Source: an uncultured Alphaproteobacteria bacterium
GTDB taxonomy: Bacteria; Pseudomonadota; Alphaproteobacteria; Rickettsiales; UBA1997
Length of the DNA stretch: 64,000 nt
Direction of reading: 5' to 3'
Assembly (NCBI GenBank): GCA_949288805.1
Contig: CASELL010000001.1
Location: 89,027-153,026, forward strand
Shown here: in pieces, positions 12,322 through 19,237 of the stretch
Layout: each line of letters opens with the position of its first letter
Position numbering within the stretch: the first letter of the stretch is position 1
Made by a program: the position numbers and the translations under genes
The notes under the pieces: model-generated
Databases searched by the model: none
What the model saw: the letters and a program-made list of their open reading frames with translations, nothing else
Told to the model about the DNA's origin: nothing

Positions 12322-12366
12322 TTTATAATTAAACTAATAATTGTCAATTAATAGTTTAATTATAAA
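12322..12366. repeat. 45-bp near-perfect AT-only palindrome centred on TTGTCAA/TTGACAA
   Basis: tttataattaaactaataattg t caattaatagtttaattataaa has 22-nt arms with one mismatch. It lies between the stop of the 1234-aa gene (12420) and the SNF2 start (12294). Confidence 0.6.
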
Positions 12367-12419: not shown

Positions 12420-15400
12420 TTATATTATTGGCTCTAAATCATAAGATTTATAAGAATCGATTTGATTTTCAATAAATTCTTTAACATTTTTATAAAAAAT
12501 TTCTTGATCCATATTTTTAATTATCGATTTATTCTCTAAAAATTTTTCAATTTCATTTTTTTTATTAATTAAATCATCTATTTTATTTTCAAAGCCCATA
12601 TAATCTAATAACATTTTATATAAATATCCACATTCAATAAGATTAGTAATTTTATTGCATTCTAAATTTTTATGATTTTTATATTTAATATTTTTATTGG
12701 CTTCTTTATAGTATTTTTTAATAACCATTAAAATAGTAACATCTGTAATGTCAAAATTATATAAAATAATGCCAATATATCTATATATTTCTTTTGTATC
12801 TTTATTATTTCTAACTAATTCAAATAAACCCTGAAACCATTCAAAATTTGGCTTAATATCTATTTTATTTAATATATCAAAATTTAATTTATCGTTGTTT
12901 TTTAAATATTCAATTACAAAATCATAATAAAATTTATAATCTTCTTGAAATTTCTTTTTTAACATTTCTGGAATAGTATTATCTTTTTTTATAAAAGAAT
13001 ACATAGATTTTTCTATATCTATAATATCATTAATATTTTCTTCACAAAATTTTTCATTACTATATAATTTTTCAAAAAGACTTTCTAAATAATAACTAAA
13101 CATATCATCTCTAAATATTTTATCATTATTGAAATTTGTACATTCTTTTAATACTTTAAAAATTAAATCTATATTATTTACATGTTCATGATTTATTAAA
13201 CAAAGTTCAACATATTTTTTTTTATTATATTTTTCTGTATTATTTAAATATATATTAAAAATTTTATAATCTTCAATATAAAAAAATGAACAATTTTCCC
13301 AATAATACTTTTCATTATTTTTAATAATTTTTTTTACTTCATCATCAAATGTTTTATATGATAAAACTTTTTCAATAAACAATACATTTTTATCTAAAAT
13401 ATCAAAAGCTTTATTAAATATATTTTCTTTATCTAAATAATTTAAAAAAATAAATAATTCATGATATTTTTCTTTTCCAAATAATTGTTTAATTGTGTTT
13501 GTTTTATTAATTTTTGTTTTAGCTAATATTTTAAATAAATATTTTTCATTTATTTTTTCATATAATTCTAAAAATTTATTTATATCGTTATCATAATCTC
13601 TTAAAAATTTATCTAATTCATTAATTGTCTTTAATTCTAGATCTTTATCTTTATAAAACTTATAATGATTAATATTACTAAAATATATTACATATTTTTC
13701 AAATTTATCTATATTTATTTTATTACAAATTTTTTCTAATTTTTTTATATTATCATTATCTTTTCTATATTCTAAATATTTTATATTTTCTTTAAATATT
13801 TTTGTTAATTTATTTTTAGATTCGTTATCAAATTTATTAAAATCAATATCGTTTAATAAAGATATATATTTTTCAATAATATCTTTATCTTCCAATAAAT
13901 TAATATTATTACAAAATTTAACAGGTTCTTTTTTTAGGAAATTAAAATATTTTTCTAAAAAATATTGTTTAATACTATTATTTAAAGTTAGTTTTTTAGG
14001 ATATAATTCATTATTTGCTCTCCTTATAAAAATGACAACATTTTTTGCATTTAAAACTTCAAATATAATATTTTTAAACAACTCTTTATCTTTATATTCT
14101 TCTAAAATTTCTCGTAATTCAAAACTATTTAGTATATTTTTATTATCAATCATAAATATTGTTTTTATAAGGTATTCAAAATATTCATATATATTTTTAT
14201 TATAAAATAAATATAATAATTCTTCCAATACACGATCATCATAATTTTTATATTTATACAATATGTATTCAAATATCTCTATAATATCTTTTATATTATT
14301 AATTTCATTTTCTTTGATCATACAATCAATTTTTGTCAAAAACTGCGGAATATCAATCAAAGCTAAGTTAATTAATAATTCAAAATTATTTTTATTAATA
14401 AATTTCTCTATTAATTTATTAAATAATTGCTCAAACCAAACATATTTATAATTATATTTTTTATATAACATATTAAATATATTAAAAACACCAGTAATTA
14501 AATAGTTTGAATATTTATTGTCCTCTTGTTGTAATACTTCATTTAATAAAAAACTTTCTATTTTATCTAAAATAGATTCTATTTCTTTTTCATCAAAATT
14601 ATAGCATTGTATAAAATTAGAAACATAATAAACTTTACAATAATTATTTTCTCTTTCTAATATTAAATTATTTTCTTTTAACTCTTTTATAGTTTTATTA
14701 AATTTATCTTTTATAAATTGTTGTTCATAATTACCATTACCCCATCTATAAAAAGGTAAAATATTTAAAAACAAATCTTTTTGATCTATTTTAAAATTAT
14801 TTATTTTTAATAAACTTTGATGTAAATATTTTAAATTTGTATCACAATCATTAATTAAATCAATATAATTAATAATATTAAATTTGTTTTTAAAATAATA
14901 TAAAACACCTTCTTGTGTTATATTTTCTAGATATATAGTATTATAACTATTAAGAAAATTATTTTTAAAGTCATTACCAATAGGAATTATAATTTTTGTT
15001 TTTTTAGATAAAATAGACATAATTTCATAATTGGGATTTTTATCTATAATATATGGTACTATAATACTATTAATATAAGAATATTTAGATATTTCTAATA
15101 GTGTTTCATTTGTAGTAATTATTTGACTTTTAAAATAAATATTATAGTTATTATATTTTTTTAGATATGATATCAAAAACAACAAAGATTCTTCTTGAGA
15201 ATTTGATTTTATATATAAAATATCGCATTCTTTAAGTTTTTTATCAATATCTTCTTTTTCATATTTTCTTGATAATATTAATTCTTCATTCAAAGGTATT
15301 TTTGTTGAATTTTTCCAAGTTTCAAAAAATTTATCAAACTCATCATAACCATCAATTTTTTGATTACATAAATTTATTTTTAACCAGTTTTCAGTAGACT

Positions 15401-16124
15401 TTGACATTATTAATAAACTATTTAAATCTTGTTTATCAATAATTTTAACATCATAAAAAAAATTCTTTTTTTTATATAAGTCAATTAATTTATTTTTTTT
15501 AGTTTCTTCTGTGTTTTGTTTAGTAATAAAGCAAAAAGTTTTATTTTTGTTTTCTTCATTTTTTAATCTTTTGTTTATATCTAATTCAAATTTTTTGCCC
15601 CAATCTTCTTCTATACCAAATTCAAAAATTATTTCTTTATTACCTATACCAAATTTTGTATCAAAATTAAATTTAGCATAACCATCTGAACCTGACAAAT
15701 AAACTCCATCTTTAATAGGTATTCTAATTGAATCATTATTTCCATATATATCAACAATTAATCTGAGAATAAATTCAGCGAAAGTTTCTCCATTAGAAAT
15801 AATAGAAATATAATCTTTTTTTACAATCATAAGATTTTCATTTTTTAAAAAATTTTTTAATTCTGTTTTTGTAAGATTAAAATCTTTACAAGTATCTTCA
15901 ATTCCAAAATTATTGTATGAATTAATAATATTCCATTTTTCTTCATTACTTCTATCTTCAATTTTTACTTTAAAATTATTTTCTTTAGAAATTTTAATTA
16001 AAGTTTTTTGAGATATATTAAAATACTCTGCTGTTTCTTTTAAAGAATGTGTTTTTCTATATTCTTTAATTAAATTAATAGTTTTTAAATCTTTAATTAC
16101 AACTCTTTTTTTTCTTTCTACCAT
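12420..16124 (-). CDS. Giant orphan protein (1234 aa): N-terminal helix-turn-helix module(s), possible Mrr-like nuclease-type segment, long helical-repeat body
   Basis: Uninterrupted 3.7-kb ORF with a GAGGT SD 7 nt upstream. HTH-like SLKETAEYFNISQKTLIKISKEN and a second GIEDTCKDFNLTKTELKNFLKN. The segment FAEFILRLIVDIYG...LSGSDGYAKF...EIIFEFGIEEDWGKK resembles restriction-endonuclease-like N-domains only loosely. No Walker A found. Confidence 0.55.
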   Translation of the reverse strand: MVERKKRVVIKDLKTINLIKEYRKTHSLKETAEYFNISQKTLIKISKENNFKVKIEDRSNEEKWNIINSYNNFGIEDTCKDFNLTKTELKNFLKNENLMIVKKDYISIISNGETFAEFILRLIVDIYGNNDSIRIPIKDGVYLSGSDGYAKFNFDTKFGIGNKEIIFEFGIEEDWGKKFELDINKRLKNEENKNKTFCFITKQNTEETKKNKLIDLYKKKNFFYDVKIIDKQDLNSLLIMSKSTENWLKINLCNQKIDGYDEFDKFFETWKNSTKIPLNEELILSRKYEKEDIDKKLKECDILYIKSNSQEESLLFLISYLKKYNNYNIYFKSQIITTNETLLEISKYSYINSIIVPYIIDKNPNYEIMSILSKKTKIIIPIGNDFKNNFLNSYNTIYLENITQEGVLYYFKNKFNIINYIDLINDCDTNLKYLHQSLLKINNFKIDQKDLFLNILPFYRWGNGNYEQQFIKDKFNKTIKELKENNLILERENNYCKVYYVSNFIQCYNFDEKEIESILDKIESFLLNEVLQQEDNKYSNYLITGVFNIFNMLYKKYNYKYVWFEQLFNKLIEKFINKNNFELLINLALIDIPQFLTKIDCMIKENEINNIKDIIEIFEYILYKYKNYDDRVLEELLYLFYNKNIYEYFEYLIKTIFMIDNKNILNSFELREILEEYKDKELFKNIIFEVLNAKNVVIFIRRANNELYPKKLTLNNSIKQYFLEKYFNFLKKEPVKFCNNINLLEDKDIIEKYISLLNDIDFNKFDNESKNKLTKIFKENIKYLEYRKDNDNIKKLEKICNKINIDKFEKYVIYFSNINHYKFYKDKDLELKTINELDKFLRDYDNDINKFLELYEKINEKYLFKILAKTKINKTNTIKQLFGKEKYHELFIFLNYLDKENIFNKAFDILDKNVLFIEKVLSYKTFDDEVKKIIKNNEKYYWENCSFFYIEDYKIFNIYLNNTEKYNKKKYVELCLINHEHVNNIDLIFKVLKECTNFNNDKIFRDDMFSYYLESLFEKLYSNEKFCEENINDIIDIEKSMYSFIKKDNTIPEMLKKKFQEDYKFYYDFVIEYLKNNDKLNFDILNKIDIKPNFEWFQGLFELVRNNKDTKEIYRYIGIILYNFDITDVTILMVIKKYYKEANKNIKYKNHKNLECNKITNLIECGYLYKMLLDYMGFENKIDDLINKKNEIEKFLENKSIIKNMDQEIFYKNVKEFIENQIDSYKSYDLEPII

Positions 16125-16303
16125 AATTTACCTCGTTTAAAAATATTGAATAATTTAAATAATTCACTAAAAATACCTTTATTATTTTTTTTATTTACAT
16201 TACTATATATATTACAATTATTACAATTATAATTATTATATGTATTATATATATTATTAATTTTGTTTTTTTTATGTTTAAAATGTTGATATTTATTAAC
16301 CAT
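16118..16303 (-). CDS. Questionable 61-aa Asn/Lys-rich upstream ORF overlapping the start of the giant gene
   Basis: The stop overlaps the giant gene's ATG (ATGGTAG). Contains a CNNC motif. Its low-complexity composition is what a random ORF in AT-rich DNA would look like. Confidence 0.15.
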   Translation of the reverse strand: MVNKYQHFKHKKNKINNIYNTYNNYNCNNCNIYSNVNKKNNKGIFSELFKLFNIFKRGKLW

Positions 16304-16422
16304 ATATTAAATATTTATTTATTATTGTAAATATAATAATAATTTTTTTATTTGTCAAGTATTTTTTATTAAATTAGTAAACTTTTTAAACAAAATTATA
16401 AAATAAATACAATTTTTAACAA

Positions 16423-17838: not shown

Positions 17839-19237
17839 TTAAGAATCAATAAATACAATACTATTTAAACATTTATCAATGTTATCTTTTGTTTTTTCTA
17901 GCTTTATATTATCAGTATCGCCGTATTTGTTTTTGAAGTCGGTGGCTTGTTGTTCTAGTTTGTTGAGAAATTGTGAAACTTCTTTATAATTACCATTTTC
18001 AAAGTGATAGCTTAGATTACTACTGTTATTATTTTTATAATCATTTAATATTTTATTACATTCTTTTATACCTTTAAAAAAATCAACAAAATTACCAAAT
18101 TTTATTGTAAAATCTGTTTGACGAAAACAATAATTTATGTCAATAAAATTTGTAGAAAGTGTTACTCTATAACAAAATTTTTTATTAAAACATTTAAGTA
18201 TATTTTCTTTCTCCTTTTCATATTTATTAATATCATACAAAATACAATCTTTATTATATTTAAAGCCCTTTCTAGCAAATATTTCATTAACAATATAATC
18301 CCAATAAAATTCACTTTTATATTTATTATAAAATTCAAAAAGATAATCAAAAATTAAGTTAAATTGCCTACAAGTTATATTATTTGATGATGCCAGTTTA
18401 TTTAAAGATAAATAAATACTCACTATTATAAACATCTTTTTCTTCTTTAATATCAAAACTAAACTTTTCTTTTAGTTTTGTTTTTATATAACTTAAATAG
18501 TCAATTTTAGATAATTTAATTTCTTCTACAAAAAATCTTACAAAATAATTTTCACCATCTGACTCTTCTTTAAAATTATACATTGCTTGTAAAGAATGAT
18601 TTAAGGCCCTTCTATTAGCAAAATAAAAAATAATTATTCCATCGATATCAAAAAAATGTTTTGTTGTTTCAAGTATTTTCATGGCATAGTCAGGCCTACA
18701 TCTGTCTAATTCATCAATAATTAGAACAAGTTTTTTTGAATCTGTTTTTTTAATTAAAGTTGTTAAAGATTTTTTAAATTCTGTTATTGGGTCTTGTGGT
18801 TTTTTCTCAAAATATTCAATAAATTCTTTAGCAGAAGGGCAAAAAACATTCGAAGCAACTTTAACAAGTTCATACATAACACAAGCACTTTTTTGAATAA
18901 AATCTTTAATTTTTTCTAATCCAATTTTACTTCTATAATATTCTAATATTTTATTACAAATTAAATTTAGTGGTTGTTCGTAGTAATCGTTTTCCCAAGC
19001 ACTAAAATAAACGGCATCAATATTTTTGTCTAATAAAGTTTTTGTTAATGCTCTGGCAAAGTATGTTTTTCCGGTTCCAAAATCGCTTTCAATTAAAAAT
19101 ACGTTTCTTAATTCTTCAAAGTATTTTTGTTTGCCAATTTCTAGTTCGGGGTGTTCTGTTTTTGTGAAGTTGAATTCTTCTGTTTTTGTGATTATTTTGT
19201 CTAGTAGTTTTTGTCTTTCGGGAAATAGGTCTGGCAT
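17839..19237 (-). pseudogene. KAP-family P-loop NTPase split into two overlapping ORFs (279 aa + 205 aa) by a frameshift
   Basis: The upstream ORF has Walker A SDFGTGKTYFARAL and the KAP signature LVLIIDELDRCRPDYAMKILETTKHFF. The ORFs overlap at 18398-18456 in different frames. ...VYNSEYLFIFK* and ...SIYLSLNKLASSNNITCRQFNLIFDYLFEFY align in succession with IYNSIYIKIAF...NLREINYAFRFIEYYF of the intact paralog. Confidence 0.65.

Follow-up and report, generated by a model that had tools for sequence, protein, structure and literature searches.

The stretch of DNA considered here, called the window below, comprises 64,000 nucleotides of contig CASELL010000001.1 (assembly GCA_949288805.1, positions 89,027 to 153,026 of the forward strand) from an uncultured alphaproteobacterium of the Rickettsiales (UBA1997). 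On its minus strand, from 12420 to 16124, lies an open reading frame (ORF) of 1234 codons that begins with ATG, preceded by a GAGG motif ending 6 nt before the start codon. This giant gene, as it is named in what follows, belongs to a run of co-oriented defence-type genes, and its start codon is overlapped by a 61-codon micro-ORF located in a leader rich in tandem repeats. From the N- to the C-terminus, the predicted product carries a tandem helix-turn-helix (HTH) head, a probable nuclease domain, a Rossmann-like alpha/beta domain, and a winged helix continued by a long alpha-solenoid. Profile comparisons of the sequences identify it as a strongly diverged member of a real, widespread and unnamed family of ~1260-aa proteins, in which a nuclease-like head is joined to a solenoid. 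The family would most likely function in anti-invader immunity.

A preliminary description of this DNA had considered that a 3.7-kb frame could hardly be accidental. Indeed, when the surrounding 4.5 kb were shuffled 200 times, the longest open frame had a mean of 76 codons and a maximum of 124. Because 7% of all possible point substitutions in the giant gene create a stop codon, the frame has to be maintained by selection; its probability of still being open after 100 neutral substitutions is ~7e-4. The 1234-aa gene is genuine and is kept open by selection. It is present in one copy in the genome, and contigs from at least two other samples encode the identical protein. Its composition is atypical. 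The GC content is 15.8%, compared with 24.6% (standard deviation 4.3) for the ORFs of the genome, which places it at roughly the first percentile. At third codon positions the value falls to 7.7%, and 80% of the residues of the protein belong to just eight kinds (K, I, N, L, E, Y, F and D). None of 40 related genomes, two of them of the same genus, contains the gene. Horizontal acquisition is the best explanation for its presence.

Pfam, PADLOC, NCBIfam, PHROGs and the PDB sequences gave no match when searched directly with the giant protein, because its composition and divergence hide it. A word-indexed homologue search, swamped by AT-rich words, returned 2, then 6 proteins. One of these, P0002 (1255 aa), is 35% identical over residues 133-383; this distant relative is the nearest one and is equally AT-rich. 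An exhaustive phmmer search of 1.8 billion representatives retrieved 106 proteins at E <= 1e-3, nearly all aligning to residues ~110-400 of the giant protein and most of them 1240-1370 aa long. A family hidden Markov model (HMM) was then built from 36 of the phmmer relatives, the giant protein being left out. In hmmsearch, this HMM matched the giant protein over residues 111-405 (E 8e-52) and, colinearly, over residues 914-1079 (E 3e-8), and it matched P0002 from end to end (E 1e-202). Comparison of the giant protein with the 36-member alignment by hhalign gave a probability of 99.6% and an E-value of 1.2e-24 over 979 columns, with residues 109-1126 colinear; the final ~108 residues lie outside the match. 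Identity to family members is 13-20%, the members sharing ~30% with each other. The protein, initially regarded as an orphan, thereby finds its place in a large family. The family came to light only by way of exhaustive phmmer and profile methods.

A pattern scan of 185,579 species genomes located the family in at least 594 loci confirmed by tblastn. Among the loci listed, Bacteroidota, Pseudomonadota, Actinomycetota, Chloroflexota, Planctomycetota, Chlamydiota and groups of the candidate phyla radiation are represented, together with a metagenome-assembled genome of Methanosaeta. About 20 full-length copies are carried by plasmids (Rhizobium, Aminobacter, Shewanella, Cupriavidus, Acetobacter, Thalassospira and others), where RefSeq labels them 'helix-turn-helix transcriptional regulator' or 'hypothetical protein'. 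Ten loci were found in IMG/VR contigs and one partial match in GenBank phages. The family is overwhelmingly chromosomal or plasmid-borne, not phage-borne. When 36 typical members were scanned against Pfam and PADLOC, the matches were confined to N-terminal HTH models (HTH_3 in 12, HTH_31 in 10), and no model of either library covered the ~1260-aa body. P0002 matches phrog_18693, an entry of unknown function, from end to end (E 1.8e-75; 1243 of 1258 positions). PDB profile searches with the family returned noise only, and a search of the literature for the phrog_18693 identifier and for solenoid-nuclease defence proteins yielded nothing on this family, which is without a name in every library searched. 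Two extra-long members were also observed (P0110 and P0111; 1997 aa; Logan/ENA contigs). They have HTH_3 and the usual WDG-type head, with several hundred additional residues before and within the solenoid.

The N-terminal part of the giant protein (residues 1-420) was modelled with AlphaFold2 from an alignment of 71 rows (predicted local distance difference test, pLDDT, 86.6; predicted template modelling score, pTM, 0.75). The tandem HTH head corresponds to about residues 9-103 (15816 to 16100, minus strand). Its modelled helices (13-23, 28-34 and 39-48, then 60-82 and 86-95) form two tri-helical units, and an internal repeat relates residues 16-53 to residues 64-100. Pfam matches stay below threshold: HTH_28 (0.0022; 18.5 bits for a cut-off of 25), NUMOD1 (0.008) and HTH_7. 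The units would be of the resolvase/psq type (HTH_28/HTH_7-like), and the one or two HTH motifs that had been noticed in the first ~100 residues resolve into two. In 1.8 billion proteins, the sole sequence relatives of this head are two tandem-HTH proteins, P0068 and P0081 (E ~1e-4). P0081 passes the Pfam cut-offs of HTH_28 and HTH_7 and P0068 that of HTH_28, the latter protein ending in DUF7487.

This type of HTH head is specific to the window copy and has no relation to the XRE heads that 16 other members carry. The HTHs fused at the N-terminus in this family are of at least three unrelated types, namely XRE (16 loci), a second type (3 loci) and the tandem type of the window; P0110 likewise has a fused HTH. 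About two thirds of the members have no HTH at all. At three further loci (L010, L053 and L073), separate small HTH genes (XRE-like, MerR/excisionase-like and HxlR-like) end within 30 nt of the start of the giant gene. The occurrence of separate or fused HTHs at the same point suggests that the giant gene needs a dedicated DNA-binding regulator.

The domain following the HTHs (residues 105-255; 15360 to 15812, minus strand) is compact in the AlphaFold2 model, with pLDDT values of 89-97. According to DSSP, it contains a helix (112-127), a short strand (~134), two strands (148-151 and 164-170), a helix (175-187), a strand (195-201), a helix (207-219) and a last strand (225-229). In the model, the elements follow the alpha-beta-beta-beta-alpha-beta order of restriction-endonuclease-like nucleases. 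D147, in the family motif GWDG, and E168, in the motif WE.G, are invariant in 65 sequences, and K178, D182, R186 and D230 are at least 90% conserved across the family. The window copy retains all six of these charged residues. Foldseek was run with the whole three-domain model of residues 1-420 and found nothing below E 1e-3. In the PDB, ClpC and pyruvate kinase were returned at E ~0.02-0.1 and Mus81 at E 0.06 (probability 0.63). The top matches in BFVD included proteins named as restriction endonuclease, DNA mismatch (Vsr-type) endonuclease and endonuclease-like (E 1.6e-3 to 0.1), and HTH/psq proteins were returned as well. A Mrr/restriction-endonuclease-like character had been suggested for residues 110-200. 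Topology and the invariant D147 and E168 speak for this suggestion; the fold matches with endonucleases are weak. From topology and conservation, the head is probably a restriction-endonuclease-like nuclease fold of the PD-(D/E)xK type.

This head is not the only one found on the family body. An alternative head of ~280 aa, with the signature STGGGG..FE / DDL / GQIKH, takes its place on the same body in P0109, in the plasmid copy of Shewanella OS117 and in 6 of the 10 loci from viral contigs. P0108 carries a third head. A Pfam search of the alternative heads gave no match. The idea that the STGGGG..FE head might be a diverged version of the usual one was rejected, the hhalign probability being 0.2%.

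Residues 260-420 (14865 to 15347, minus strand) are modelled as a Rossmann-like alpha/beta domain with a beta-alpha-beta pattern, the strands being at 302-306, 333-336, 354-357 and 377-382. Two conserved residues, E312 and F316, belong to the family consensus A.S..EA.AF ... PL.LIP.F ... GHHVLVPLG. Here, the preliminary description had seen a degenerate P-loop/Walker B pair. What had been taken for a P-loop is the loop (IKSNSQEES) that comes after the first strand and corresponds to A.S..EA.AF in the family, and neither Walker A (GxxxxGK[ST]) nor Walker B is present in the giant protein or in the consensus of 36-71 members. A Rossmann-like domain devoid of any nucleotide-binding signature, in the protein as in the family, takes the place of this pair. 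Since the whole family consensus is without the motifs, their absence would be ancestral and not the result of decay. Fold matches of this region are weak (AAA+ proteins or pyruvate kinase, E >= 0.02).

The remainder of the protein (residues 421-1234; 12423 to 14864, minus strand) is assigned to a winged helix and a HEAT/ARM-like alpha-solenoid, presumed to be the sensor, through the colinear hhalign match and the model of a relative. The homologous 960 residues of the Belliella alkalica member (locus L005) were modelled with AlphaFold2 from 70 rows (pLDDT 91.5, pTM 0.80) and form a winged helix followed by ~45 helices. The ~800-aa body that had looked like helical repeats is, in the model of this relative, a long solenoid. 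Its PDB matches are Kap121 (a karyopherin), exportin-4, CAND1, FANCI, HUWE1 and importins, at E-values of 1e-5-1e-3 and a template modelling (TM) score of ~0.2; on the models, this is generic HEAT/ARM similarity. No bacterial defence protein occurs among the best 50 PDB fold matches of the solenoid. Conservation in the family peaks in the head, in a central block at profile positions 521-640 (LLWALE.LAW ... NRP.NSL) and in the C-terminal 140 residues (N.RG...GG.QER...PRTA...RED). Column conservation is lowest at profile positions 680-1040, between the conserved blocks. A variable stretch flanked in this manner has the pattern that would be expected of a specificity surface.

The genomic setting deserves attention. 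The window island contains a type III Res/Mod pair with an SNF2 motor, a PDC-S01 AAA_14/DUF4143 ATPase and two KAP-family nucleoside triphosphatases (NTPases; PDC-S20), one of which is split. The hipBA genes lie slightly further on. The defence-island setting proposed initially is thus borne out by the type III restriction-modification system with SNF2, PDC-S01, the two KAP NTPases and the nearby HipBA. Concerning the split gene, the second KAP NTPase (17839-19237) is divided in the window into ORFs of 279 and 205 aa. In the metagenome contig L002, which encodes the identical giant protein, the same gene is predicted as a single one of 467 aa (L002 6883-8286). As it is whole there, the split reflects either a strain-specific frameshift or an assembly difference. 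A near-perfect 45-bp AT palindrome (12322-12366) was also observed 54 nt past the stop codon of the giant gene, before the SNF2/type III operon. Its centre falls on the -35 hexamer of TTGACA-16-TAAAAT (12347-12320), a strong promoter-like site. The palindrome looks like a candidate operator, for which the HTH head of the giant protein would be one conceivable binder. The genes flanking the island are on different contigs in the same-genus genomes. In both of these, rdgB (Ham1), which marks the island border in the window, is at a contig end (G001:C10:353-937 and G002:C2:93-662). This break of the assemblies at rdgB hints at a variable or repetitive region in the same-genus genomes too.

Across 80 related family loci, no neighbour gene is conserved. 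Among 132 immediate neighbours, PADLOC models at E <= 1e-8 tallied AbiEi 9 times, SoFic, PDC-S24 and PDC-S04 4 times each, and mad5, LmuB, type I S, type I methyltransferase and type IIG twice each. These defence tallies sum to at least 31 of 132 (~23%) if none overlap; they are counts per model, and one protein may match two. Pfam matches of the neighbours include BsobI, HinP1I, RloB, AAA_13/15/21, integrases, resolvases and a Tn3 transposase. On the Shewanella OS117 plasmid, the family copy follows an Abi gene and a superinfection-exclusion gene. A plasmid copy of Adhaeribacter has a PDDEXK nuclease gene on one side and a DUF4238 gene on the other, and is preceded by an XRE/ImmA pair.

Possible partners were considered in the same loci. 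AbiE as an obligate partner was rejected, being found at 9 loci only, almost all of an XRE-headed clade. The adjacent SNF2 helicase was rejected too: the SNF2 proteins next to the giant gene in the window and next to P0002 are 25% identical, and none recurs in the 80 loci. It was nonetheless observed that at L027, L033, L039, L059, L060 and four more loci, a divergent AbiEi gene (~204 aa) lies directly upstream of the giant gene, and that beyond it the XRE-headed clade has a gene of ~305 aa, the size of AbiEii. These two genes and the giant gene may form a lineage-specific three-gene block. As another observation, the island of P0002 (L001 1951-15025) comprises a PLD-SNF2 helicase, a 1094-aa Eco57I/TaqI_C-type methyltransferase, an FGase-family gene and the giant gene, followed by a DUF4172-Fic (SoFic-like) gene; Fic genes adjoin the giant gene at 4 of the 80 loci.

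What could such a protein do? The reading to which we give somewhat more than even chances is that the family is an NTPase-free, single-protein sensor-nuclease, built like DSR2 and not like the STAND (signal transduction ATPases with numerous domains)/Avs proteins, in which capture of a ligand would activate the head nuclease through the middle domains. The layout of the family, from N to C, would be an optional DNA-binding HTH, an exchangeable effector head, a Rossmann-like domain without NTP-binding motifs, a winged helix and the ~800-aa HEAT-like alpha-solenoid. Beyond this domain architecture, we infer the following course of events. The solenoid would be the receptor for an invader-derived ligand, for example a phage or plasmid protein or a nucleic acid. 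Ligand binding would relieve autoinhibition or drive oligomerisation through the middle domains. The activated nuclease head would then cut DNA, and the invader would be destroyed or the infection aborted. In the window copy, the tandem HTH might anchor the enzyme on DNA, autoregulate the promoter of its gene, or do both. The giant protein would act alone, without an NTPase. This sensor-effector reading is proposed because of the patchy distribution, the absence from relatives and the atypical composition; because the gene stands alone, in variable neighbourhoods rich in defence and mobile-element genes; and because an invariant acidic pair occurs in an exchangeable head on a conserved giant solenoid with one variable patch. 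These six features appear to match those of single-protein anti-phage sensor-effectors.

A number of observations weigh against such a function. Some concern the domains. The fold searches are weak for a nuclease (best PDB E-value 0.02, endonucleases at 1.6e-3-0.1, low TM), and the (D/E)xK lysine is absent, the motif being E-F-G with K178 ten residues on, in a helix. The solenoid resembles generic HEAT proteins only, and DSR2 is not among its best 50 fold matches. Others concern the neighbourhoods. The ~23% of defence neighbours is a raw share only, and the nine AbiEi neighbours belong almost all to one XRE-headed proteobacterial clade, so that they represent few independent events. Finally, some concern the window copy itself. 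It keeps 23 of 42 (near-)invariant family residues, when P0002 keeps 35 of 42; E589, E637, W641, G1165, E1169 and D1217 are lost. Of the C-terminal GG.QER/RED motif, G1166 alone is kept (G1165C, E1169Y, D1217F). Two neighbouring genes of the island are frameshifted, the DUF4391 gene and one of the KAP NTPases. In view of these lost residues and frameshifted neighbours, the window copy may be impaired.

Carried further, this last group of observations would make the window copy a functionally eroded relic, open but drifting, in the decaying island of a small (~1.08 Mb) AT-rich genome. The low identity to the family and the dominance of eight amino acids in the protein would agree with such erosion. 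However, all the charged residues of the head are kept, as are E312 and F316; the frame would hardly have remained open through 100 neutral substitutions, as calculated above; and the identical protein recurs in the other samples. In addition, some of the positions counted as lost are perhaps alignment errors at such divergence. We consider it rather unlikely that the gene is a relic.

Another possibility would be a role in the conflicts or maintenance of mobile elements, such as plasmid or prophage exclusion, addiction or anti-plasmid interference, or else that of a non-catalytic DNA-binding scaffold or regulator. Many copies are on conjugative or mobilizable plasmids, one of them, on a plasmid of Shewanella BA175, directly after parAB, and some copies belong to viral contigs and to a PHROG. 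Such a setting does not distinguish a mobile-element role from the defence reading, defence systems being commonly carried on plasmids and prophages. In favour of a regulator or a scaffold, HTH heads are frequent, RefSeq uses the label 'HTH transcriptional regulator', and the DNA-associated HEAT scaffolds FANCI, SA2 and DNA-PKcs are among the fold matches of the solenoid. However, the two thirds of members without an HTH argue against a regulator, and the invariant acidic residues of the head suggest an enzyme, as does its exchange for a domain whose signature is D...QxK. On balance, these roles are judged unlikely, and an enzymatic sensor remains the preferred reading.

The leader of the giant gene raises a question of its own. 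The 61-codon micro-ORF (16118 to 16303, minus strand) is present as described initially, with the sequence ATGGTAG joining its stop to the start of the giant gene and with a CNNC stretch in its product. It might be a genuine, translationally coupled leader peptide controlling the giant gene. Besides the stop/start overlap, gene callers predict it in two other assemblies, and a 61-codon frame in a stretch of 305-322 nt has P <= 0.001 in mononucleotide shuffles and in Markov models of order 1-3. However, AT-rich tandem repeats of period 9/18 occupy positions 16136 to 16262 in the ~200-nt leader and cover 127 of the 186 nt of the micro-ORF. Tandem Repeats Finder reports period 9 at 16210-16230 (100% match) and 16226-16262 (four copies), period 18 at 16199-16257 (3.5 copies) and further repeats at 16136-16164 and 16178-16196. 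As the period of the repeats is divisible by three, two of the frames in the 305-nt gap (10.5% GC) are nearly free of stops (6, 26 and 5 stops in 101 codons). The shuffle and Markov models of chance ignore these repeats; they and the genome-gap comparison are misleading or uninformative, and the length of the micro-ORF loses its value as a sign of coding. CNNC itself is the product of an exact 9-nt duplication (16210-16230). No Shine-Dalgarno sequence precedes the ATG, a feature that only 19% of the ORFs of the genome possess. The micro-ORF has neither a paralogue nor a homologue in the genome, and it has no match in Pfam or NCBIfam. Conservation is lacking as well: no comparable ORF was found upstream of 64 family loci or of P0002, and the small upstream genes at family loci, where present, are unrelated HTH, membrane or spurious ORFs. 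A translated leader peptide is thus quite improbable. Of the two interpretations that had been offered, leader peptide or noise, noise is the better one, and the micro-ORF is probably a by-product of the 9-nt repeats, not a gene.

Upstream of the leader, at 16330 to 16358 on the minus strand, the promoter-like site TTGACA-17-TATATT agrees with the consensus at 11 of 12 positions and has the top score of the scan. Promoter-like sites around the giant gene do not exceed in number the shuffle expectation, so that this site is to be taken as a consensus match only. Located between it and the start codon, the leader repeats could be regulatory. It was observed that the 9-nt/18-nt units are degenerate and AT-rich, possibly forming iteron-like sites or DNA-curvature elements. 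A search for operators upstream of the giant gene found AT-rich pseudo-repeats only.

The last alternative, suggested in the preliminary description, in which the Rossmann-like domain and the winged helix would be a decayed nucleotide-binding oligomerisation (NOD) module of an Avs-like signalling protein, is very improbable, for although the order of effector head, alpha/beta domain, helical/winged-helix region and repeat sensor mimics that of STAND proteins and the N-terminal model gives weak fold matches to the AAA+ proteins ClpC and NSF (E 0.02-0.07), the Walker motifs are absent, no Pfam NACHT, NB-ARC or nSTAND model and no PADLOC Avs or NLR (nucleotide-binding leucine-rich repeat) model matches the protein or its 36 relatives, and no NLR, Avs or Apaf-1 structure occurs among the best 50 fold matches of that model. 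An effector head and a C-terminal repeat sensor are indeed seen in the AlphaFold2 models, but they are common to non-STAND sensors and hence not diagnostic. With an effector-like head, a repeat body and no NTPase motif, the other suggestion made at that time, of an undescribed class distinct from classical STAND proteins, has fared better.

Coming back to the sensor-nuclease, a broader proposal may be put forward more tentatively, as we hold it to be somewhat less probable than even. The family would be an undescribed, widespread class of NTPase-free immune receptors, in which the conserved ~800-aa solenoid, with its variable patch at 680-1040, recognises an invader molecule and switches on whichever head is attached. 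The heads in use would be two of nuclease type, unrelated to each other, and one or more others, and independently acquired HTHs would link the receptor with DNA or with its own promoter. With its tandem resolvase-type HTH and iteron-like leader repeats, the window copy would be a self-regulating, DNA-tethered version. If the immune reading is true, proteins now labelled 'hypothetical' or 'HTH transcriptional regulator', and unrecognised by the defence catalogues searched, would be a single-gene immune system that occurs in most bacterial phyla, in hundreds of species, and that is carried by plasmids and a few prophages as well. They would provide a nuclease-armed counterpart to DSR2 and lend weight to the view that prokaryotic immunity makes general use of large alpha-solenoids, without any NTPase, as receptor scaffolds. 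It would also follow that a reduced organism, with a ~1.08-Mb genome of 24% GC, still retains an acquired multi-system defence island.

How does the family compare with known systems? The defining feature of Avs proteins is a STAND P-loop NTPase, which drives their oligomerisation. With Avs3 and Avs4, the giant protein family shares an exchangeable N-terminal effector of the nuclease type, a large repeat sensor, the single-gene organisation and the location in defence islands; it differs from them in having no Walker motifs and no match to STAND models. With PD-(D/E)xK nucleases (Mrr, Vsr, Mus81/ERCC4), the family head would share the alpha-beta-beta-beta-alpha-beta core, an Asp opening the second strand and a Glu in the third, both invariant. 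In contrast to these enzymes, it has no in-strand (D/E)xK lysine, K178 being in the next helix, and it has no match to their sequence models and no fold match below E 1e-3. The sole library entry covering the family is phrog_18693, which matches the nearest relative over its whole length, whereas the giant protein itself gives no match to it at E 0.1; the entry carries no annotation.

The best characterised parallel is DSR2 (defence-associated sirtuin 2) of Bacillus subtilis, one large polypeptide in which an N-terminal effector and a middle domain precede a HEAT-type alpha-solenoid at the C-terminus; this solenoid is the receptor for a phage protein, and there is no NTPase (PMC11850899, PMC11263360, PMC10981675). 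The effector of DSR2 is a SIR2 NADase, where the family studied here has a nuclease-like head. The two are not related in sequence, and no Pfam or PADLOC model of SIR2 or DSR2 matches the giant protein or its 36 relatives. The family differs further in its Rossmann-like domain and winged helix, as well as in the HTH that a third of its members possess. Apart from these differences, the giant protein family would obey the same logic as DSR2, at a similar size.

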